Below, piece after piece: positions 1 through 35,912 of a stretch of DNA of 35,912 nt. The notes beneath the pieces were generated by a model. It did no database searches. It was not told the origin of the DNA and saw only the letters and a list, made by a program, of their open reading frames with translations. This DNA comes from a virus, in the IMG/VR virus record IMGVR_UViG_3300045988_101805, positions 1 to 35,912 of that record. One strand, given 5' to 3'. Each line of letters begins with the position of its first letter. The first letter of the stretch is position 1. The translations under genes and the position numbers were made by a program.

Positions 1-88
1 AGCGTCGTGCTTATCAAGGTAGCTGTCTATTGTTTTATACAAATGGGCGGCTACTATTTTTATTGCTAATACTGCTGAAACAAAAGCT
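1..88. repeat. Terminal direct repeat, copy 1 (identical to 35825..35912)
   Basis: Read base by base: agcgtcgtgcttatcaagg...gaaacaaaagct occurs at both ends of the window. Confidence 0.95.
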
Positions 89-99
89 GTGCAAAGCAT
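1..99 (-). CDS. 5' part (33 codons) of a 49-aa small hydrophobic ORF spanning the circular junction
   Basis: ATG at 99..97 with a weak AGGA 6 nt upstream. Translates MLCTAFVSAVLAIKIVAAHLYKTIDSYLDKHDA and continues in frame at 35824. Below the ORF-track cutoff. Confidence 0.3.
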   Translation of the reverse strand, partial: MLCTAFVSAVLAIKIVAAHLYKTIDSYLDKHDA

Positions 100-174
100 T
101 AGCAGTCCTAAAATTATTACTTCCGTCTTTCTTCACCTCCTTACGCTGTTTTCTGTGAATAAAGCAATGTGTTA

Positions 175-203
175 TTGTTTTAAACGACCTTGTATGGTAA
201 TAT
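175..203 (+). promoter_or_regulatory. Sigma-A-type promoter for the 224..574 gene
   Basis: TTGTTT (175-180), 17-nt spacer, TG (195-196), TAATAT (198-203). AGGAG at 211-215 and ATG at 224 follow. Confidence 0.55.
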
Positions 204-223
204 TAAACAAAGGAGTGGTACAT

Positions 224-574
224 ATGCTTGATAAGAAATGCAGAAAGATTGTAAAATGCTGTTTAAAATATTATCCTGACGAAAGAACTATTCAAACAAC
301 AGATTTACAAAAACACCTAAATTTCAGCAAGATGGAAATACGCTATTGCTGTCAGAGATTGAATAAATTAGGTTTCTTTGATTCATTTCAAACTTCAATA
401 GAAGACACGGTTCATTTTGTTCCGAGTTATAAATTGTTTAATTATAAAGAACACGAAAGAACGAAGATTAAAGAGTTTTTGATAAACTCCGTAGCAATAC
501 CCGTCATCGTGTCAACACTATCAAGCATACTAATAACGCTGATAACACTGATGATATCAGGGATACTGCAATAG
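224..574 (+). CDS. Tail-anchored winged-helix-like protein (116 aa), unknown family
   Basis: ATG 224 follows AGGAG with good spacing. The 89..223 part of the track ORF has no RBS. N-terminus LQKHLNFSKMEIRYCCQRLNKLGFF is wHTH-like. C-terminus AIPVIVSTLSSILITLITLMISGIL is one TM helix. Confidence 0.6.
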   Translation: MLDKKCRKIVKCCLKYYPDERTIQTTDLQKHLNFSKMEIRYCCQRLNKLGFFDSFQTSIEDTVHFVPSYKLFNYKEHERTKIKEFLINSVAIPVIVSTLSSILITLITLMISGILQ

Positions 575-686
575 ATGTAAAAATCGGGTGTTTCATTAAC
601 CATTCAAGGATAAACACCTTATCTCGCCCCCCTTTTTAGTGTGGTAGTTGCATTTTGTAACATTTTTGAAATAGTCGCAAAATTAT

Positions 687-715
687 TTGACAAAATATAA
701 ATATTCTTGTATTAT
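687..715 (+). promoter_or_regulatory. Near-consensus sigma-A promoter for the 756..1412 gene
   Basis: TTGACA (687-692), 17-nt spacer, TATTAT (710-715). Confidence 0.65.
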
Positions 716-755
716 CGTTAAAGAAAGTAATATATTTACAGAAAGGAACATATTT

Positions 756-1412
756 ATGGATAAACTTTACTTTGACAATAATGCCGATGAAAATGCTGAA
801 ATTGATTTTCAGCAAATGCAATTATACATTTCTCGTAGTTTCGCTCAATTAGCTGAAAAATTGAAACCTATGTATGCTGAATTAGCAAAGGAAATGAGTA
901 AAAATATCGGACACGCACTTACCGAATCGTTAGCAAAACCGCTTGAATCCATAAGGATTACTTACACATTTTCTCCCGAAGTTATTAAAGCGTTTCAAGA
1001 ATGTATAGAAAGTTATTCTAAAAAATTTCAGTTTCCGCAAAACAATCACGAAATAACTGTTAATTTAAACAATAATGATATAAAAGTTATTAATAATTTC
1101 AACATAAATATCAACAATTATATAGTCACCGATAAATCAAATGAAAGCAAGAAAGTTTTCACATATGAACGAGTTATAGCCTTTCTGAATTTATTGCTTT
1201 CTATCATTTCTTTAATTCATACAGACAACAATCAACCTACCTGTCTGTGTGCTGAAACACAACAGGCTGTTGTTCAATTGCAAGAACAAATTGACGGAAC
1301 AAATAACTTGATAGATAAATTTGTCAAACAATTAAATGAGTCCACAGATGATGAAATTACTTCTGATGATTCGAAAGTATCGAATGAAAAAGATCATTCA
1401 GATTCTGAATAA
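756..1412 (+). CDS. Hypothetical 218-aa protein: helical N-terminus, Asn-rich centre, one TM segment, acidic C-terminus
   Basis: ATG 756 preceded by AAAGGAAC. Contains NLNNNDIKVINNFNININNY, the TM-like VIAFLNLLLSIISLIH, and an acidic tail DDEITSDDSKVSNEKDHSDSE. No family recognised. Confidence 0.6.
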   Translation: MDKLYFDNNADENAEIDFQQMQLYISRSFAQLAEKLKPMYAELAKEMSKNIGHALTESLAKPLESIRITYTFSPEVIKAFQECIESYSKKFQFPQNNHEITVNLNNNDIKVINNFNININNYIVTDKSNESKKVFTYERVIAFLNLLLSIISLIHTDNNQPTCLCAETQQAVVQLQEQIDGTNNLIDKFVKQLNESTDDEITSDDSKVSNEKDHSDSE

Positions 1413-1554
1413 CTGTCTCCGTACAAATCACCTTGCACCTTAGGTTTCTTATCATAGACTGCTGTAATGTAATCATAATCACAAACATTAAATTGATAGC
1501 AAATTGTACCCAATCAATGTTGCCTATAAATAAGCAGTTTGATAATTCGTTCAT
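1357..1554 (-). CDS. 65-aa hydrophobic small protein, convergent with and overlapping 756..1412
   Basis: Strong RBS GAGGAGGTGAGAAG immediately upstream of ATG 1554. Hydrophobic stretch WVQFAINLMFVIMITL. Overlaps the + gene by 56 nt. Confidence 0.45.
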   Translation of the reverse strand: MNELSNCLFIGNIDWVQFAINLMFVIMITLQQSMIRNLRCKVICTETVIQNLNDLFHSILSNHQK

Positions 1555-1583
1555 CTTCTCACCTCCTCGGTTAAACTATAAAG

Positions 1584-1614
1584 CTGAATAGAAACACACT
1601 CTATTCAGTTTTTT
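1584..1614 (+). terminator. Rho-independent terminator (hairpin + T-run), possibly bidirectional
   Basis: CTGAATAGA (1584-1592) pairs with TCTATTCAG (1600-1608), followed by TTTTTT (1609-1614). Confidence 0.6.
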
Positions 1615-1623
1615 GTTGGTTTG

Positions 1624-1830
1624 TTAGTTTAAAAAGATACGCACTATCCGCTTTTCATCTGTAATGTTAAGAACCTTGCAAATCAGAGCGGCTTCGTCAA
1701 TGGTAAATTTAGTTTTGCCTGAAATTTTCGCAGACAGCGTATTTACCGACACACCCAGCTTTTCTGCAAGTCTTGCCTGCGTGTAGCCTGCCTCGGCTAT
1801 TGCTCCTTTTAAACTGTTTGCGTTAAGCAA
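1624..1830 (-). CDS. XRE/Cro-type HTH protein (second copy, paralogue of 2295..2507)
   Basis: YTQARLAEKLGVSVNTLSAKISG is a classic HTH. GAGGTGATAACA precedes TTG at 1830. The track's GTG at 1839 lies inside the RBS. Confidence 0.8.
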   Translation of the reverse strand: MLNANSLKGAIAEAGYTQARLAEKLGVSVNTLSAKISGKTKFTIDEAALICKVLNITDEKRIVRIFLN

Positions 1831-1864
1831 TGTTATCACCTCTTTTTATAATTTTCATATGGTC

Positions 1865-1892
1865 TTGCACTTTCCTAATAATGTGATATAAT
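1865..1892 (+). promoter_or_regulatory. Extended -10 sigma-A promoter for the 1926..2099 gene
   Basis: TTGCAC (1865-1870), 16-nt spacer containing TTTCCTAA, TG (1884-1885), TATAAT (1887-1892). Confidence 0.6.
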
Positions 1893-1925
1893 TTCAGCAT
1901 AAATTAAGGAAAGGAGGGTTAAACT

Positions 1926-2099
1926 ATGATTACAGGCAATCATGAAAAAATTGCTTTTGATGTAACTAAGGAAATCGTTATTGCAAGATTGTCAAATTGT
2001 CAGCACGCTGTTGATAAAGAGCATGGTGAAAAAGTTGCTGATTATTTTGAAATAATCTACAATAGAATTCTTGAAATCGTTAATTCAGAAGAAAACTAA
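1926..2099 (+). CDS. 57-aa hypothetical protein
   Basis: Strong RBS AAAGGAGGG 7 nt before ATG 1926. Translates MITGNHEKIAFDVTKEIVIARLSNCQHAVDKEHGEKVADYFEIIYNRILEIVNSEEN. Below the ORF-track cutoff. Confidence 0.55.
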   Translation: MITGNHEKIAFDVTKEIVIARLSNCQHAVDKEHGEKVADYFEIIYNRILEIVNSEEN

Positions 2100-2106
2100 T
2101 CCTTAA

Positions 2107-2253
2107 TTAGCACACGGCTCTTGCTGACACCAACTCGGCAAGGGCTGTTGTTAATTTAGCAATAGTATCACCGTCATCACCGCTGTCACAGTTAACATAC
2201 TTTGTTATATGGTCACATAACAAAGAAATTAAAGTGTCAATTTGTTCTGGCAT
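2107..2253 (-). CDS. 48-aa hypothetical protein downstream of the cro-like gene
   Basis: RBS AAGGGGGTGAAAAATA then ATG at 2253. Translates MPEQIDTLISLLCDHITKYVNCDSGDDGDTIAKLTTALAELVSARAVC. Confidence 0.5.
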   Translation of the reverse strand: MPEQIDTLISLLCDHITKYVNCDSGDDGDTIAKLTTALAELVSARAVC

Positions 2254-2294
2254 TATTTTTCACCCCCTTAGTTTTGATTGGGTTTCAGTTTCCT

Positions 2295-2507
2295 TTAAGA
2301 AACCACATCAGCAAAAAAAATAGACATAATCTTATCTGAATTAAGTCCGAGAATTTTTGCAAGCTGTGCGATTTCTTCCTGCTTGAAACAAGTGACACCA
2401 TTTATCCTTGTATAAAGTGTCTTTTTATCAATTCCCATTTTTTCAGCAAGTTTTGGAATTGTAAAATTGTTTCTTGCAATTTCAGCTTTAAGATCACTTG
2501 TATTCAT
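2295..2507 (-). CDS. Cro-like XRE HTH regulator, divergent from the repressor
   Basis: FTIPKLAEKMGIDKKTLYTRING is an HTH. GAGGTGATAAAA precedes ATG 2507. Divergent from the CI-like gene across a 162-bp switch region. Confidence 0.85.
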   Translation of the reverse strand: MNTSDLKAEIARNNFTIPKLAEKMGIDKKTLYTRINGVTCFKQEEIAQLAKILGLNSDKIMSIFFADVVS

Positions 2508-2539
2508 TTTTATCACCTCGTTTCCTTTAGGATACTTAA

Positions 2540-2568
2540 ATTATATACTGCTTTTATTCCTTTGTCAA
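2540..2568 (-). promoter_or_regulatory. Consensus leftward (lytic, cro) promoter
   Basis: The minus strand reads TTGACA (2568-2563), 17-nt spacer, TATAAT (2545-2540). Flanked by CTTTAGGA at 2525-2532 and 2572-2579. Confidence 0.7.
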
Positions 2569-2608
2569 CCACTTTAGGAAACTTTTTTATATTTTTTCGG
2601 TTTAGTAG

Positions 2609-2636
2609 TTGCTTTTTTGAAACTTTGTGTTAAAAT
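2609..2636 (+). promoter_or_regulatory. Rightward (repressor) promoter
   Basis: TTGCTT (2609-2614), 16-nt spacer ending in TGT, TAAAAT (2631-2636). AAGGAGAG RBS precedes ATG 2670. Confidence 0.55.
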
Positions 2637-2669
2637 ATAGTTACAGACCTCTTATAAGGAGAGACAAAA

Positions 2670-3305
2670 ATGGATATAGGAAAAATGATTAACCAAAGAA
2701 GAACCGAATTAAAACTAACTCTTGAACAGGTAGGGCAAGTAGTTGGTGTCGGCAAGAGTACCGTCAAAAAATGGGAAGACGGTTATATATCTAATATGAG
2801 AAGAGATAAAATAGCTTTATTAGCCAAAGTCTTAAAAATGAACCCGGTTTCTTTTATTACTGGTGAATTTAAAGAAGAAGAAGACCAAGCAATCCCACTT
2901 CCGCAAACAAATGTATTTATGCGACCTGTGTATGACAGCATTTCGGCAGGGTTCGGAGCCGTTGCTCAGGATGTGCCTGTTGACTATATGCCTACATACA
3001 TCACTTGCCCCTCAGAACAGGATAAATACATATGGATAAATGTTCACGGCGATTCTATGAGCCCTCTGATTGATGACGGCAGTAAAATTCTTATTAAAAA
3101 ACAAACTTCCGTTGACAGCGGTCAGATTGCCGCAGTCCTCGTTGATGATGAAGAGGCTGTTGTTAAAAAGGTTCTTTACAGCGATAACACCGTTGAACTC
3201 CATTCAGTCAACCCCTACTATCCCCCACGAGTGTTCAAAAATAACGACATCACCCGTGTTCAAATCCTCGGTCTTGTAAAAGAAGTAAGTAAGGCTTTGC
3301 AGTAA
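2670..3305 (+). CDS. CI/LexA-like phage repressor (XRE HTH + S24 autopeptidase)
   Basis: N-terminal HTH LTLEQVGQVVGVGKSTVKKWEDG. C-terminal GDSMSP (catalytic Ser) and VVKKV (Lys), the S24 Ser-Lys dyad. Confidence 0.92.
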   Translation: MDIGKMINQRRTELKLTLEQVGQVVGVGKSTVKKWEDGYISNMRRDKIALLAKVLKMNPVSFITGEFKEEEDQAIPLPQTNVFMRPVYDSISAGFGAVAQDVPVDYMPTYITCPSEQDKYIWINVHGDSMSPLIDDGSKILIKKQTSVDSGQIAAVLVDDEEAVVKKVLYSDNTVELHSVNPYYPPRVFKNNDITRVQILGLVKEVSKALQ

Positions 3306-3368: not shown

Positions 3369-3590
3369 ATGTCAGCAAAAGAAAAAATCATCAATCTTAT
3401 AAACGACTTTTCAGAAGAACAGCTTGAAGAACTGCTCACTATGTTGCAAAGTTTAAGACATATCGTAGATGACGCAGAAGATGACGCTTATTGTCAGAAA
3501 CTCTATGACGAATACAAGAATAACCCGTCTGATCCGAATGAGAATGTCAGCCTTGAAAATTTTGCAAATGAGTTGGGGATAAATCTGTAA
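3369..3590 (+). CDS. Putative antitoxin of the RelE-type TA pair
   Basis: 73-aa acidic protein with RBS AAGGAGGA. Its stop overlaps the toxin ATG (TAATG at 3588-3592). Confidence 0.6.
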   Translation: MSAKEKIINLINDFSEEQLEELLTMLQSLRHIVDDAEDDAYCQKLYDEYKNNPSDPNENVSLENFANELGINL

Positions 3591-3841
3591 TGAAGTATAA
3601 AATTGAACTGAACAAAAAGGCTCAGAAGTTTATTAAATCTCAGCCCCGCAACCAACAAGAACGAATTTTGAAAGCTGTTTCAAAACTTCCTGACGGTGAT
3701 GTAAAGGCCTTGTCAGGAAACAGCAACGCTTACCGCCTGCGTGTCGGCAATTATCGTGTTATCTATGAAATCAATAACGATATTCTTCTCATAACCGTTG
3801 TTGATGTCGGCAACCGAGGTCAGGTTTATAAGAGAATATAG
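3590..3841 (+). CDS. relE: RelE/ParE-family type II toxin
   Basis: YRLRVGNYRVIYEINNDILLITVVDVGNRGQVY is the typical RelE/StbE C-terminal signature. 83 aa. Confidence 0.85.
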   Translation: MKYKIELNKKAQKFIKSQPRNQQERILKAVSKLPDGDVKALSGNSNAYRLRVGNYRVIYEINNDILLITVVDVGNRGQVYKRI

Positions 3842-3850
3842 GTAATAACT

Positions 3851-4081
3851 ATGACTTGCTTTTATTGTAAAGGTGATATGGTTGACAGCACAACAACCCA
3901 TGTTGAAGATTTGGGCAACTGCATTGTCATCATTCGCAATGTTCCTTGTTCAAAGTGCAGTCAGTGCGGAGAAGTATCCTACAACGGTACTGTATTAAGA
4001 CAGATTGAACAGGTTATTGACAACCTCAAAAATTCACTTACCGAGGTTGCTATCGTAAACTATAAGCCAAGTGTAGCTTAG
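3851..4081 (+). CDS. Stand-alone YgiT/MqsA-type zinc-ribbon protein
   Basis: CFYCKG ... VPCSKCSQCGE pattern (CxxC ... CxxC) with the V-P-x-x-x-C context typical of the YgiT-type Zn finger. No HTH domain follows. Confidence 0.7.
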   Translation: MTCFYCKGDMVDSTTTHVEDLGNCIVIIRNVPCSKCSQCGEVSYNGTVLRQIEQVIDNLKNSLTEVAIVNYKPSVA

Positions 4082-4265: not shown

Positions 4266-5417
4266 ATGCGTTGTAAAAAATGTAAAAAGCAAATTCCGGA
4301 CAAATCTAACTTCTGCAATTGGTGCGGAACAGCAGTTGTCAAGAAACCGCACAGAAGAGCAGACGGAAACTATGAAAAATCAATCTGCATAAACGGCAGG
4401 CGAAAAACCTTTTATGCCAAGACCGAACGAGAGCTTACAAGGAAAATTGCAATGTACAGTGCTGAGCAGGAGCGTAGTAAACGATTTGATGAGCTGGCAG
4501 AGGATTACAAGGATAATTATCTTCCTGAGCTTTCCCCTACTACACAGAAAAGTTACAATACTATTCTTGATAAGTTTACAGATGAATTTAAAGGTCGTGC
4601 GGTAAATGAGATTAAGCCGTCGGATATTCAGAAGAGTATTGACAACCTTTCAAGAACATATACTGCGAAAACAAAACGAAACTACCTTGCCACATTGTCA
4701 AGTGTATTCTCTTTCGCTGTGAGAGCCTCAGAGTACGGAATTGACACTAACCCTTGTAACTATATTAAAATTAAAGGAAAGCCGTCCACGGAGCGTAGAA
4801 TAGCCACAGATGAAGAGATTAAAATAATTTGCAGGAATACAAAAGTTCATTTTGGGTTGTTCGCATTCTTCTTGCTGACAACGGGTTGTCGCAGGTCAGA
4901 GGCTTTGGCTCTCAAATATGAGGATATAGACTTTAAGAATGATGTCATACATATAACAAAGTCGGTCACTTGGGAAAAATCAATCCCTGAATTGAAAGCT
5001 CCTAAGACAGTTAAAGGCATTCGTGATATTTTTCTTGTACCGCACTTGAAAGATGTACTGCCAAAACGAAAAAGAGGTCTTATCTTCCCTTCTTCCAAAG
5101 GTCAGTTGATGACGGAGTGTCAATATGCTACTGAATGGCATAAATATTGTGCTGAATCGGGATTAGATGATTATGCCAATGAAAACAACCTCTCTCCCTT
5201 GACTGCTCATTGCCTTAGGCACAATTATGCTACGATACTTAACGAAGCAGGCATTGACACAAAACAGGCTATGCAGTTGCTCGGTCATGCAAATGAGGCA
5301 ACCACAAAAGATGTTTATACAGCGATAACTGAAAGAAAAAATAAATCCGACAAAGTTCTTGTAACGGAAAAATTTGAAAAACGCATTCAGGAAATCACCG
5401 CAGCCGACAACCCTTGA
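4266..5417 (+). CDS. int: Tyrosine integrase with N-terminal zinc ribbon
   Basis: CKKCKK...CNWCG ribbon. Catalytic residues in GCRRSEAL (R), HCLRHNYAT (HxxR) and LLGHANEATTKDVY (H...Y). RBS AAAGGAG. Confidence 0.93.
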   Translation: MRCKKCKKQIPDKSNFCNWCGTAVVKKPHRRADGNYEKSICINGRRKTFYAKTERELTRKIAMYSAEQERSKRFDELAEDYKDNYLPELSPTTQKSYNTILDKFTDEFKGRAVNEIKPSDIQKSIDNLSRTYTAKTKRNYLATLSSVFSFAVRASEYGIDTNPCNYIKIKGKPSTERRIATDEEIKIICRNTKVHFGLFAFFLLTTGCRRSEALALKYEDIDFKNDVIHITKSVTWEKSIPELKAPKTVKGIRDIFLVPHLKDVLPKRKRGLIFPSSKGQLMTECQYATEWHKYCAESGLDDYANENNLSPLTAHCLRHNYATILNEAGIDTKQAMQLLGHANEATTKDVYTAITERKNKSDKVLVTEKFEKRIQEITAADNP

Positions 5418-7776: not shown

Positions 7777-9459
7777 TTAACTTACTCCTTTTATATCCCA
7801 ATCGCAATGGTCGGCTGGTGCAGCATACAACTTCTTAATTTCAGATATATTGACGCAGCGGTCAACAGTAAGTACATTCGGCGTGTCAGAATATTCACCT
7901 TTCAGCGTTCTTGCCTGAATTTCAGTATTACCAAAATCACAGTTGCGAATAGTAATACTTGAACCTGTTTTGATTGACAATCCAAAATCGCTATTGTCAG
8001 CATTTTCGTGGTTCTGATAGCCAACAGTGCAATTTGTGGGGATAATTTTGCAGTTTTCAATCAATCCTACCTCACCAAAGCTGTGACCACATCCGAGCGC
8101 TGGAACCGTTGTTTTGCCAGAATAATCAACGCAATCCGCTCTGCCACCCCACTTAAATATGCAATTAGCGACTGTCCATTCTGTTGCATAACCTGTACCG
8201 CCAGATTCGAGATGTAAAGCGTAACGGATATTTTTACAATCAAATGTAAAACCTTTGATGTGAGTGTGGACATTCAAATCCAAATGAAACGGACATTTTT
8301 TGATTATATCTTTTGACATCAATTTAGACTTATCAAACCCTGTCGCACCGTCCCACTTAATTATTGTAGCCTGTGGATTGTATATATTTTCAGACTCATA
8401 ATAGACATAGTCTTTCATCATTACCCCACGATAACCCACAAGTCCCACATCAGACATTCCTGCAAATTTATCTTGCATATCTGTATATGTGCCTTGTGCA
8501 ACGATGATTGTGTAGCGATTATGGTAGTTGTTGTCTGTTATGCTATCATTAGCAGACAGAATAGAATTGAACTTCGTAACGCCAAAACCGTCAGTATTCT
8601 CGTTGTAATCATTTGAAATATACAGATAATTCATAGCGTAGTCGGGAGCCTGGTACAACTCAGGTTTAATTCTTTCGCTTATAAAATCCGGATTTGCGTA
8701 CGCTGATTTTTTGTTGTTCTGTTCAAGTTGAAGATTACAACTGTTGTCAACAAGTCTATTTGTAGCAACCGCAACTTTAATCGAATTTACGGTTACATTT
8801 TCTGTCGCTGTATAAGTAGCCACTGCATTTTTAAAAGCACTAACTTCTGACAAGAGCCAAGATGAGCTAATTGCTGTCTGTCCGTTCGCAGGATAGAAAA
8901 CACAGCCACCGTTTGCAATGTTAGCAAAATTCTGCAACGATAAGCAATACGCTTTGCCTTTCTCAAGAGTAACCGCACGCTTGAGTTTGAGATAAAAATT
9001 AACCGCAGCGGTAGATGTGCCGCTTAAACTGATTTTGCCTTTGACAACTGTAACGGTTACACCGTTTTGATGTTGTGAATAATCTGCCAAATAAGCCAAA
9101 TTTATACTCTTAGTAACATCAAATAATTTGCTACTGTCTACTTTTTCGCCAAATTTATTTATGACATCATCTGCCAAGTTGACAGCTCTGACCGTGCCTG
9201 CTGCATCTTTAATTCCGTCTGTGATACCGTAACCTGCAAGGGTACTGGCTTTATCTGCTTTTTCCGCAAGATTTGCGTTGACTGTATCAAGCCTTGCTCC
9301 AAGTGAATTAGAACCGCCTCTTGCCGTGGCTATTTCGGTTTCAAGTGCAATTGCTCCGTCTGTTGCCCGTTCAATCCCCTCGTCCATATGGTTGAGGTTG
9401 TCGGCATTGAGAGCAGGAGCAGAGCCGTTCACAAAGCCGATTTTATTGTATTTGTTCAT
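7777..9459 (-). CDS. Tail fibre / receptor-binding protein
   Basis: Last large tail gene. The N-terminus GFVNGSAPALNADNLNHMDEGI is a motif I associate with Firmicute phage fibres. The Gly/Cys/Asn-rich C-terminal half could be beta-helical. Confidence 0.7.
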   Translation of the reverse strand: MNKYNKIGFVNGSAPALNADNLNHMDEGIERATDGAIALETEIATARGGSNSLGARLDTVNANLAEKADKASTLAGYGITDGIKDAAGTVRAVNLADDVINKFGEKVDSSKLFDVTKSINLAYLADYSQHQNGVTVTVVKGKISLSGTSTAAVNFYLKLKRAVTLEKGKAYCLSLQNFANIANGGCVFYPANGQTAISSSWLLSEVSAFKNAVATYTATENVTVNSIKVAVATNRLVDNSCNLQLEQNNKKSAYANPDFISERIKPELYQAPDYAMNYLYISNDYNENTDGFGVTKFNSILSANDSITDNNYHNRYTIIVAQGTYTDMQDKFAGMSDVGLVGYRGVMMKDYVYYESENIYNPQATIIKWDGATGFDKSKLMSKDIIKKCPFHLDLNVHTHIKGFTFDCKNIRYALHLESGGTGYATEWTVANCIFKWGGRADCVDYSGKTTVPALGCGHSFGEVGLIENCKIIPTNCTVGYQNHENADNSDFGLSIKTGSSITIRNCDFGNTEIQARTLKGEYSDTPNVLTVDRCVNISEIKKLYAAPADHCDWDIKGVS

Positions 9460-16051: not shown

Positions 16052-16444
16052 TTACTTCCTTTCGTAATAAAATTTAACTTCAATGACCTGCTCATACACA
16101 CCCTTGTCGTCTGTTCCCACATCAACGGGTTCTTCCGTGAGCAGTTCGATTATATAGATTTTGTGTTCCTTAATTTCAACTTTTTTAATGCCGTAAAGCG
16201 TTTCGTAAAGTCTGCGTGCAAACTCCTCGGTTTCTCTTGCGTTGTCGGTGTAATGGATAAGCAAAGACACGCTTATTGTATCGTAGGTACTTTCACCGCC
16301 GATTGCCCTTGTGGGTGTTCCCGACTGCTTTAATGAATACACACCGATTGACTTATCCTGCTTATTGTCGAGTTTACCTATGTAATAATGCTCGGCTGAG
16401 GTAACGCTTTTGAGCCAATCTCTGATGTCCGATAAGTAAATCAA
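16052..16444 (-). CDS. Tail terminator / neck protein
   Basis: TTG 16444 preceded by AAAGGAAGC and overlapping the upstream stop. Assigned by synteny. Confidence 0.6.
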   Translation of the reverse strand: MIYLSDIRDWLKSVTSAEHYYIGKLDNKQDKSIGVYSLKQSGTPTRAIGGESTYDTISVSLLIHYTDNARETEEFARRLYETLYGIKKVEIKEHKIYIIELLTEEPVDVGTDDKGVYEQVIEVKFYYERK

Positions 16445-34011: not shown

Positions 34012-34749
34012 ATGTTTTCAACACTATACAGAAGGGAGTCCTTGACTATACGAAAGACAATATACAACTGTAAATCATTGAACAACGAAGAACATTACAA
34101 AAATCTTGAAATTGAATATCCGCCCGGTTGTCCCATGTGTCACAAAACAGGTAATCCGTTTTGTTTAAGTTCCTACTATATTGAAGATGAATTTACCCGC
34201 CCAAATCTTTTTGTTCATTTTTTCTGTCAAAATTGTGAAAGGACATTTTTAGGGAATTACTATATAGGTCCTTATTACGATAAAACTGAATTTGAAAGTT
34301 TTGAGCCGGTTTACAATACCAAAGAACGAGAATTTCCTAAACACATAAGAGAGTTGTCACCTGATTTTTGCGACATATATAACCAAGCATACGCTTCTGA
34401 ACAGTATGGATTGAAAGATGTTTCGGGTATGGCTTACAGAAAAGCCTTAGAGTTCTTAGTAAAGGATTACGCAATACTGTTACAGCCGAACGATATGGAG
34501 AAGATTGTTAAAGCACCATTATCAAGATGTATTAGCGATTACATTGATAACAAAAAAATCAAGAAATTAGCAATAGCCTCTGCTTGGCTTGGTAATGATG
34601 AAACACATTACGAACGAAAATTCAAAGATTACACTATTGATAACTTAGTCGAATTTATAAACGCTATTGTTTCTTTCATAGATTCAGACATTTCTGTAGC
34701 AATCGCTGAAAATATGATAGAAGAACAAAAAGCTACTCATCAGTCGTAA
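34012..34749 (+). CDS. Zinc-ribbon + DUF4145-like (HEPN-clan-like) protein
   Basis: CPMCHK...CQNCERTF ribbon. The C-terminal half AYRKALEFLVKDYAI...WLGNDETHYE resembles DUF4145. Start uncertain (no RBS at 34012). Confidence 0.65.
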   Translation: MFSTLYRRESLTIRKTIYNCKSLNNEEHYKNLEIEYPPGCPMCHKTGNPFCLSSYYIEDEFTRPNLFVHFFCQNCERTFLGNYYIGPYYDKTEFESFEPVYNTKEREFPKHIRELSPDFCDIYNQAYASEQYGLKDVSGMAYRKALEFLVKDYAILLQPNDMEKIVKAPLSRCISDYIDNKKIKKLAIASAWLGNDETHYERKFKDYTIDNLVEFINAIVSFIDSDISVAIAENMIEEQKATHQS

Positions 34750-34992: not shown

Positions 34993-35808
34993 ATGAGTGA
35001 CCAAAACATAAATGATACTGCTTATGGTGTTACAAAAGCTGTTTTAGAATCAGAAGCAGTAAGTAATCTTACAAATCCACCAACAAAAGTTGCAGGTGGT
35101 CTGTTAGCCGATTTCATAAACTTAACTGTAGGTGGCATACACTATGCTTCAATAAAAGCCGAATTAAAGCGCCAAAAAAAGTTTGAAGACTTTAAAGCTA
35201 ACATTCAAAAGGGTGTAGATAATATTCCAACAGAACATAAAGTTGAATCGAGAGAATCGATTATTGGACCTGCTCTTGAAAAAGCGAAATACTTTATGAA
35301 TGAAGACGAAATTCGTGAAATGTTTGAAAAGTTAATCGTCAATTCATTCGACAGTAGAAAAATCGAAAAAATTCATCCGTCTTTTTCTGACATCATTCAA
35401 CAAATGTCGCCTATAGATGCCCAGAATTTGAAATGTTTTGCAAACGAAGAGCGTTTACCTGTGTGCGAAATACAATTAAACCTAACAGACGCTTCTCACA
35501 GAACTTTGCTAACTAATGTTTTTTGCGGTAATAAATTGTGTAATTCAATTGAACAACAATCAATATCTTTGTCATCCTTATCTCGTATAGGGATTATAAA
35601 AATTGCATACGATGAATACTTAACCGATGATTCGTTTTATAAGATTTTTGATTCATTACCTTTAGTGATAGGTTTGAAAAATCAAGTTGAAGCTGATAAC
35701 AAAATTAATAACACTAATTTTAAAATTGATTTGCAAAAGGGAGTGGCAACACTTACTCCCGTGGGAAAAGCTTTTATTGATGTTTGTCTTCGTCCTTTGC
35801 CCACTTAA
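34993..35808 (+). CDS. Abi-alpha (DUF4393)-like abortive-infection candidate
   Basis: IIGPALEKAKYFMNEDEIREMFEKLIVNSFDSRKIEKIHPSFSDIIQQMSPIDAQNLK matches my memory of the Abi_alpha core (ALE...L..MFA.LL....HPsF..II.qLsp.DA..L). Confidence 0.65.
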   Translation: MSDQNINDTAYGVTKAVLESEAVSNLTNPPTKVAGGLLADFINLTVGGIHYASIKAELKRQKKFEDFKANIQKGVDNIPTEHKVESRESIIGPALEKAKYFMNEDEIREMFEKLIVNSFDSRKIEKIHPSFSDIIQQMSPIDAQNLKCFANEERLPVCEIQLNLTDASHRTLLTNVFCGNKLCNSIEQQSISLSSLSRIGIIKIAYDEYLTDDSFYKIFDSLPLVIGLKNQVEADNKINNTNFKIDLQKGVATLTPVGKAFIDVCLRPLPT

Positions 35809-35824: not shown

Positions 35825-35912
35825 AGCGTCGTGCTTATCAAGGTAGCTGTCTATTGTTTTATACAAATGGGCGGCTACTATTTTTATTGCTAATACTGCT
35901 GAAACAAAAGCT
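35825..35912. repeat. Terminal direct repeat, copy 2 (identical to 1..88)
   Basis: Same 88 nt as the window start. Indicates circular assembly overlap or terminal redundancy. Confidence 0.95.

Follow-up and report, generated by a model that had tools for sequence, protein, structure and literature searches.

Comparative evidence for two separate membrane-protein cassettes in the accessory-gene slot beside cro of a temperate gut phage

The viral DNA record IMGVR_UViG_3300045988_101805 (positions 1 to 35,912; this whole stretch of 35,912 nucleotides is referred to as the window) carries three small genes close to its left end. Two lie on the plus strand and encode p116, a winged-helix protein with a C-terminal transmembrane (TM) helix, and p218, an Asn-rich membrane protein; the third, which is convergent with p218, encodes the small protein p65. 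A preliminary description made from the sequence alone had grouped them as one three-gene set, and as the best candidate in the region for an undescribed exclusion or defence system. Our comparisons make it very probable that the locus is modular instead, with an independent p116 cassette and a separate p218/p65 cassette. The features concerned are as follows.

117..656, plus strand: p116 cassette, about 520 bp, recurring at 97–99% nucleotide identity in many phage backgrounds and delimited by comparing the joined window ends with 66 loci in blastn
175..215, plus strand: candidate p116 promoter, TTGTTT-17-TGgTAATAT (extended −10), recognised by eye and not reported by the consensus scan
224..574, plus strand: p116, a 116-residue tail-anchored winged-helix protein (winged helix 1–67, basic juxtamembrane helix, TM helix about 86–114)
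657..2259: extra block relative to the closest relatives, containing p218, p65, HTH71, p57 and p48
687..715, plus strand: p218 promoter, TTGACA-17-TATTAT with a TG upstream of the −10, agreeing at 11 of 12 consensus positions
756..1412, plus strand: p218, a bitopic membrane protein (helical N-terminal part of about 135 residues, TM segment 136–154, acidic C-terminal part of about 65 residues)
1357..1554, minus strand: p65, a small protein whose N-terminal segment is hydrophobic; its gene converges on p218, with an overlap of 56 nucleotides
1552..1631: conserved block comprising the p65 start and ribosome-binding site (RBS; 1552–1575) and a hairpin (1580–1612), 98–99% identical even where both coding bodies are swapped

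Related loci were fetched using p116, p218 and p65 as queries, and the counts given here are descriptive rather than an unbiased census. At exact or at least 97% identity, p116 was found in 50 loci, 40 of which lack p218 and p65; neither small open reading frame (ORF), that is p65 or its counterpart p58, nor the conserved block was seen in any of these 40. Among the 35 loci of the p218 family, a full p116 is present in ten, a 3′ remnant of p116 measuring 27–34 codons in 17, and no p116 sequence in eight. The remnants (loci L016–L021, L052 and L057–L064), which are equivalent to 469–574 in the window, retain the TM part and the downstream spacer at 96–100% amino-acid identity. In these loci p116 has lost its promoter and winged helix through at least two types of junction, each abutting the RBS and start of a minus-strand gene. 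All 34 complete loci combine p218 with a small convergent ORF (p65 or p58), a linkage that is partly trivial because the small ORFs physically overlap p218. When IMG/VR was searched by the small ORFs alone, a convergent, overlapping p218-family gene was found on every one of the 22 contigs recovered. This indicates that p218 and p65 or p58 are an obligate pair, from which p116 is separate. The preliminary description had proposed to check whether p116 and p218 co-vary, and had taken independent occurrence in other genomes as grounds for abandoning the set. We see that p116 is independent of p218, while p218 and p65 are always together, and the three-gene set is given up as far as p116 is concerned.

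The p116 cassette has left ends at 117–136 or further left, and right ends at 631–656. Public assemblies contain the exact protein in 47 indexed blocks, and in nine close relatives position 656 is joined straight to 2260, which leaves p116 directly beside cro. Across ten p116 contexts and 29 IMG/VR contigs the replication modules vary (among them RecT/DUF1351, DNA polymerase A/VapE, PcfJ/Sipho_Gp157 and ERCC4-type), and so do the repressors beside p116, which include S24-type CI and helix-turn-helix (HTH) or unannotated proteins of 124–131 residues. These differing repressor types and replication modules argue against a role tied to one immunity specificity. The slot itself is constant in the contexts examined: it runs from int to CI (plus strand), then cro (minus), none or one small ORF, p116 (plus) and the early genes (minus), so that p116 is convergent with cro and has the same direction as cI and int. 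Relatives of p116 at 27–36% identity hold the same slot next to cro.

The ATG at 224, preceded by AAAGGAG, is taken as the correct p116 start because relatives open with ML(D/T)K; the GTG at 89 that some gene callers use was dismissed on the same ground. AlphaFold2, run on a five-sequence alignment, gave a helix at 4–16, a strand, helices at 25–29 and 36–48 and a β-hairpin at 52–67, with predicted local distance difference test (pLDDT) values of 85–92, and then a single long helix at 69–112. The last 30 residues or so are strongly hydrophobic, with a Kyte-Doolittle (KD) maximum of 2.25 over residues 94–112 and about two residues beyond. The reported winged-helix domain with a C-terminal TM helix at 224..574 is upheld by the ORF, the modelled fold and this KD value. 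Foldseek against the PDB placed PefR, SarA and MarR on top (probability ≤0.99, best E 6e-3), indicating a generic winged helix, and against BFVD it picked up two gut-virome proteins that resemble p116 over the full length and are themselves uncharacterised. A p116 profile gave weak matches to the MarR, Lrp and Z-alpha winged helices in the PDB (E 0.002–0.05). Residues 1 to about 85 carry a net charge of +6, counted from the sequence. Judged by the positive-inside rule, the tail anchor and the lack of a signal sequence, the winged helix would be cytoplasmic.

A word-indexed search with p116 found only six close clusters, and an exhaustive profile search found at least 77 p116-family clusters at E < 1e-3. 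Nearly all of these are 107–125 residues long and match over their full length, from which it follows that the winged helix with a C-terminal TM helix defines the family. The family profile phrog_12206 (function unknown, profile length 119) is matched by 47 of 60 members, with a best E of 6e-11; the window's own p116 matches it weakly (E 0.031), over the C-terminal 40 residues only. Searches of Pfam, PHROGs, PADLOC and NCBIfam with p116, p218 and p65 gave no match at threshold, and no Pfam or NCBIfam model applies to the p116 family. The earlier statement that none of the three genes can be assigned to a family is correct for Pfam, defence and Rfam families, and needs amending in that the relatives of p116 fall in phrog_12206.

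Conservation within the p116 family is concentrated near the membrane. P93 is invariant, S89 and I94 are kept in more than 90% of members, and S89-P93-S97-T100/101-T104 make up a conserved face of the TM helix. Conserved basic residues lie in helix 1 (4, 7, 8, 11, 15) and in the juxtamembrane helix (70, 75, 79, 83, 88). Over the 60 members compared, the recognition helix (H3) and the wing have an acidic or neutral character, with K/R at the wing tip in at most 5%, and the median net charge of the N-domain across the family is +1. After the TM helix, most members have only 0–4 residues left. This pattern of charge and conservation does not fit an operator-reading winged helix, and the earlier description of p116 as a DNA-binding protein is weakened by it. 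Instead, the domain may dock at the inner leaflet, and the TM helix may make specific helix–helix contacts. At the DNA level, 45 gapless copies of p116 represent 17 variants, with variable sites distributed 1/4/12 over the three codon positions; all seven amino-acid changes fall within residues 19–48, and the C-terminal half has none. The gene is under purifying selection.

Two slot proteins of other phages were considered as kin of p116 and rejected: a DUF2513-plus-TM protein in the same slot of L022 (5283–5846), for which hhalign gave a probability of 0.6%, and a 106-residue protein of L076 (2580–2900), winged-helix-like by eye and with a TM segment, for which there was no hidden Markov model (HMM) match. 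Both appear by eye to have a winged-helix-like N-terminal part and a C-terminal hydrophobic tail, as p116 does, and this architecture may be recurrent in the slot. Literature searches on tail-anchored or C-terminal-TM winged-helix phage proteins, and on DUF2513, found nothing relevant.

For p218, the sequence features in the preliminary description were largely confirmed. Residues 100–130 include 11 Asn, the hydrophobic segment 136–154 is borderline in the window (KD 1.62) and strong in homologues (2.36), and the last 33 residues hold 11 D/E against 4 K/R. With K/R before the TM segment and acidic residues after it, an N-in, C-out topology is predicted by the positive-inside rule. The Asn-rich stretch, the single TM segment, the acidic tail and the near-consensus promoter all stand, but the Asn/Ile core is not conserved in homologues. 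The promoter spacer contains a 21-bp near-palindrome at 690–710, which is unique. The p218 family is small, with four close clusters and a further five at 23–28% identity by profile search. Its layout is constant, comprising about 135 helical residues, one TM segment and a C-terminal part of 60–75 residues with the end motif N-E-S-T-x-D-E-I-T-S, and protein-level constraint on p218 is clearly indicated by the sequence comparisons.

A kinship of p218 with ZorA of the Zorya system was also considered. In a PADLOC-DB v2 scan p218 gave a single row, ZorA1, at E 0.0027 and 14 bits, p116 and p65 gave none, and Abi_alpha as a positive control matched PDC-S47 at 2e-44. Residues 11–87 of p218 (786–1016) weakly resemble the ZorA tail (247–324; E 0.003–0.04, with 0.003–0.004 for PDB 8qyy/8qyk), and the motif A-[IL]-E-x-S-L-x-x-P-L-[DE] is common to the two. 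As apolipoprotein A-IV scores equally, and as p218 has neither a MotA domain nor partner genes, the likeness is considered one of amphipathic repeats and the assignment was rejected.

The small hydrophobic ORF with a strong RBS that had been reported as convergent with p218 and overlapping it is present as described, with the RBS GAGGAGGTG 5–6 nucleotides ahead of its ATG. The hydrophobic segment of p65 is borderline (KD 1.62). Frame and length are held at 80% identity, with substitutions distributed 9/4/14 over the codon positions. Other variants of the cassette have at the p65 site the 57–58-residue ORF p58, which likewise has a hydrophobic N-terminal segment and, behind it, a helical tail; p58 stays 88% conserved where the p218 proteins of the cassettes compared are only about 37% identical. 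On the plus strand the hairpin in the conserved block (1580–1612), with its T-run, makes a strong terminator (−14.4 kcal/mol, z −3.2); its minus-strand counterpart is weaker. Since the plus-strand terminator lies beyond the p65 RBS, the p218 transcript would be antisense across the whole p65 ORF and its RBS. In L076, p218 is 23% identical to that of the window, yet the promoter with its near-palindrome and the 80-bp block of RBS and hairpin are nearly invariant. Compared with the L016 type, the window is 87–93% identical over 469..1075 and 98–99% identical over 1552..1631; the intervening segment 1076..1551, which spans the small-ORF body together with p218's C-terminal half, has been replaced as one.

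That all three genes form one exclusion or defence system is, in our view, highly improbable. The window and a few relatives (L011, L012, L032, L038, L054, L056) have them side by side, a 65%-identical p116 variant lies beside a 23%-identical p218 variant in L093, and p116 or its remnant is upstream in 27 of the 35 p218 loci. However, p116 with its own sharp recombination borders stands alone in 40 of 50 loci, p218 and p65 have persisted through the loss of the p116 promoter and winged helix at two or more independent junctions, and the adjacency is explained if p116 is the usual resident of the cro slot and the p218 block was inserted there. Another reading concerns p116 by itself, as a membrane-tethered DNA-binding regulator of the lysis–lysogeny switch or as an anchor of phage DNA to the membrane like phi29 p16.7. 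Its fold is nearest to MarR, SarA and ArsR-type regulators, it is always found beside cro and CI, and its cytoplasmic part in the window has a net charge of +6, but a switch component should co-vary with immunity type, and nearly identical p116 cassettes have neighbouring repressor and cro genes of unrelated types. Neither the recognition helix nor the wing tip is basic, the N-domain median is only +1, the MarR dimerisation helices are missing, and no repeated operator-like motif was found near p116; its orientation opposite to the early and replication genes is a poor fit to a replication organiser. We consider this reading unlikely.

A type I toxin-antitoxin-like module, in which p65 would be a membrane toxin and the 200-nucleotide 3′ end of the p218 mRNA its antisense antitoxin, serving prophage maintenance or abortive infection, would account for the arrangement seen also in txpA/ratA, bsrG/SR4 and fst, namely convergent 3′ overlap, a shared bidirectional hairpin, a small hydrophobic peptide and a strong RBS. 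It would also suit the position of the p218 terminator just past the p65 RBS and the 98–99% conservation of the RBS and hairpin block. Such a module is nonetheless improbable: p65 has no detected promoter and so looks like part of the cro operon, Rfam gave no match, the hydrophobicity of p65 is borderline, and the supposed antitoxin would be a conserved protein-coding mRNA, with p218 under clear protein-level constraint. More doubtful still is the idea that p65 is no gene at all, but a chance open frame antisense to the 3′ region of p218. Although p65 is short, AT-rich, partly overlaps p218, belongs to no family and shows no similarity to p58, copies at 80% identity preserve its frame and length, with substitutions favouring the third codon position, its strong and correctly spaced RBS is conserved at 98–99%, every cassette variant has an ORF of like size and architecture at this site, and p58 is highly conserved where p218 is not.

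The reading that we prefer is of two unrelated cassettes in an accessory-gene (‘moron’) slot, expressed from the prophage and acting at the membrane in superinfection exclusion or in an abortive role; as a whole we hold it to be evenly balanced. The moron concept is due to Juhala and Hendrix. The variable slot between cro and the early genes holds two independently inherited cassettes. The p116 cassette is a single gene with its own candidate promoter, and its winged helix would sit at the cytoplasmic face of the membrane, held there by the C-terminal TM helix. Since the TM face and two basic helices near the membrane are conserved and the DNA-reading surfaces are not, we infer that p116 acts via helix–helix contacts; its partner at the membrane could be p116 itself or a host or phage membrane protein, and it would not be a classical operator-binding regulator. 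Both cassettes face as cI and int do, against the cro-driven early transcript. Such an orientation, with a p218 promoter that has no CI/Cro-type site nearby, is the usual layout of accessory genes that are expressed from a prophage.

For the p218/p65 cassette, we propose that p218 would be made in the lysogen and p65 silenced there by antisense RNA. As p65 has the orientation of cro and the early lytic genes, firing of the cro-side promoter would lead to p65 being made and to p218 expression being opposed. The complete antisense overlap suggests such a toggle, in which the lysogenic state would have p218 on and p65 off, and the lytic state would have p65 on. That either cassette serves in exclusion or in abortive infection is a tentative suggestion from the sequence, more doubtful than not; position in the slot is compatible with the exclusion or defence role that had been put forward earlier, and nothing in the analysis shows it. 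Less likely again are two separate, more specific versions. The p116 family could be an unrecognised minimal class of membrane effector, carried next to cro by many temperate phages of Firmicutes, in which the cytoplasmic winged helix would serve as sensor or adaptor and the TM helix would oligomerise or capture a partner, and which would exclude or abort superinfecting phages. The p218/p65 pair could be a state-toggled exclusion module, in which a membrane protein made by the lysogen would be neutralised on induction by a partner encoded antisense in its own 3′ untranslated region, sparing the phage's own lytic cycle. A precedent for such sparing is esc, which spares P22 from sieB.

Several observations weigh against the preferred reading of two prophage-expressed membrane cassettes. 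The cytoplasmic bulk of p116 differs from typical exclusion proteins, and the hairpin at 586–617 behind the gene is no better than shuffled sequences (z −0.9), which makes it unconvincing as a terminator. The AlphaFold2 model of p218 was unusable (pLDDT 40), and with the ZorA1 row rejected there is no accepted PADLOC defence-family match for p116, p218 or p65. BLAST detected no similarity between p65 and p58, and the consensus scan found no promoter for p65. The query-led retrieval of loci and the partly trivial linkage of p218 with the small ORFs, both mentioned above, belong here too.

Comparison with known systems gives partial likenesses. As in morons, the genes are extras inside a conserved operon, present or absent among close relatives, encoding small membrane proteins in an orientation suited to prophage expression; p218 has its own promoter and terminator, and p116 a by-eye candidate promoter of its own. 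Unlike morons, p116 has no convincing terminator and is a fixed resident of the slot across its family rather than a sporadic insert. HK97 gp15 is described as an exclusion moron (Cumby et al. 2012, as cited in PMC11436027). Known exclusion proteins are typically prophage-expressed and tethered to the cytoplasmic membrane at its outer face, and in Ltp of Streptococcus thermophilus TP-J34 negatively charged residues engage the tape measure protein (PMC3952083). The present genes resemble Ltp and the Sie2009-type proteins of lactococcal P335 phages in lying in the lysogeny region, and would also be like them in prophage expression and membrane attachment. The acidic C-terminal part of p218 is predicted to be exposed, although the fit is loose. 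There is no sequence or family similarity of these proteins to p116 or p218. They face outward by way of an N-terminal helix or a lipid anchor, whereas p116 is tail-anchored with its domain predicted to be inside, and p218 has in addition a predicted cytoplasmic domain of about 135 residues and an obligate antisense partner gene.

With MarR/SarA-type regulators p116 shares the winged-helix fold (H1-b-H2-H3-hairpin), but it lacks dimerisation helices, its TM helix following right after the wing, it has no conserved basic recognition helix or wing, and it gives no threshold match in Pfam or NCBIfam. Like ToxR/CadC-type proteins, p116 combines a winged helix, predicted to be cytoplasmic, with one TM helix; unlike them, it has no extracytoplasmic sensor domain, as the TM helix ends the protein. 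The type I toxin-antitoxin systems of Firmicutes prophages (txpA/ratA, bsrG/SR4, fst/RNAII) correspond to p218/p65 in convergent 3′ overlap, shared hairpin terminator and small hydrophobic peptide. They differ in that the antisense partner here is the 3′ end of a protein-coding mRNA, and that no dedicated p65 promoter or Rfam match was found. In short, none of the three genes belongs to a named defence family; the p116 family is already known as an unannotated PHROG, and p116 and p218/p65 are accessory cassettes of prophages that encode uncharacterised membrane proteins.

In practice the outcome is mainly negative: the three genes should not be handled as one defence system. The occurrence of a near-identical p116 cassette across co-circulating phages, together with its fixed cro slot over at least 77 clusters, suggests a selected function that is unnamed in databases. 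The p218/p65 cassette is a compact and testable example of an obligate gene pair in which the mRNA of one member is antisense to the other. Worth noting are a tail-anchored winged helix at a fixed position with a conserved polar TM face, and an antisense pair with invariant ends and fast-diverging bodies.

The genome in which these cassettes lie is that of a temperate, siphophage-like phage. The first and last 88 nucleotides of the window (1–88 and 35825–35912) are identical, and the L012 contig spans the end-to-end junction without a break, from which we conclude that the window contains a whole phage genome, circular and 35,824 bp long. The sequences analysed come from human-gut metagenomes. 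One p218-family member, WP_304033870.1, carries the annotation Ruminococcus bromii, and one p116-family member is annotated Ruminococcus sp. In the human gut, R. bromii is a keystone species for starch degradation, and to our knowledge almost nothing is known of the effects of its prophages on phage susceptibility. In GenBank phages, DNA and protein searches found nothing matching the region or the p116-family proteins, and the GenBank search matched only two unannotated human-faecal fragments, in the structural region. The GTDB species-representative genomes contained no relative of p116 or p218, and an Rfam scan of 1..2800 gave no family. The neighbouring features are listed below.

1624..1839, minus strand: HTH71, a second Cro-like HTH_3 gene, which came in with the p218/p65 cassette
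2293–2303, 2525–2535 and 2572–2582: CTTTAGGAAAC-type sites around cro73 and its promoter, candidate CI/Cro operators
2295..2516, minus strand: cro73 (HTH_3/DUF739), with a perfect TTGACA-17-TATAAT promoter at 2568..2540
2670..3305, plus strand: CI-type repressor, HTH_3 and Peptidase_S24
4266..5417: integrase
34012–34749, plus strand: p245, a 245-residue gene upstream of Abi_alpha, matching phrog_1305 (‘DNA binding protein’) at E 2e-39
34993..35808, plus strand: Abi_alpha/PDC-S47 gene (Pfam E 1e-44; PADLOC PDC-S47 2e-44)

The lysogeny switch with cro, CI and int is clearly recognisable. The minus strand carries the early, replication and structural genes, and a plus-strand island inside the early operon consists of p245, Abi_alpha, p116, p218 and p57. 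Because the contig is circular, Abi_alpha is truly adjacent to p116, about 240 nucleotides upstream, and the cargo island beside Abi-like genes mentioned in the preliminary description is borne out. Variants of p245 at 70–79% identity were found with p116 in several other phages. The CTTTAGGAAAC-type sites are restricted to the cro region, with no CI/Cro-type operator near p116 or p218; a fourth match, at 16200, is probably due to chance.

L057, a phage of the donor type, has a homologue of HTH71 as the sole cro-like gene between CI and the p218 cassette. The phage of the window has tandem cro-like genes, HTH71 (1839..1624) and cro73 (2516..2295), owing to the block 657–2259. Further within that block, p57 (1926..2099, plus strand) is followed by a terminator with a 14-bp stem at 2114–2148; p57 is kept in L022 and L064 and resembles another small plus-strand cassette within the early operon. 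In L007, a 186-residue protein with an N-terminal TM segment (8521–9081; phrog_17486, unknown function) lies between p116 and cro, in the place of p218. The slot beside cro is a hotspot for membrane-protein cargo.

The interval from CI to the integrase (3369–4081) contains a 73-residue ORF, an 83-residue ParE-family toxin (3590..3841) and a 76-residue protein (3851..4081) with CxxC...CxxC motifs, possibly a zinc ribbon; this gene group is probably toxin-antitoxin cargo. Finally, a stretch of 36 nucleotides upstream of the p218 promoter (633–668) is 72% identical to one upstream of CI (2594–2629), with the common core GTAGTTGC.

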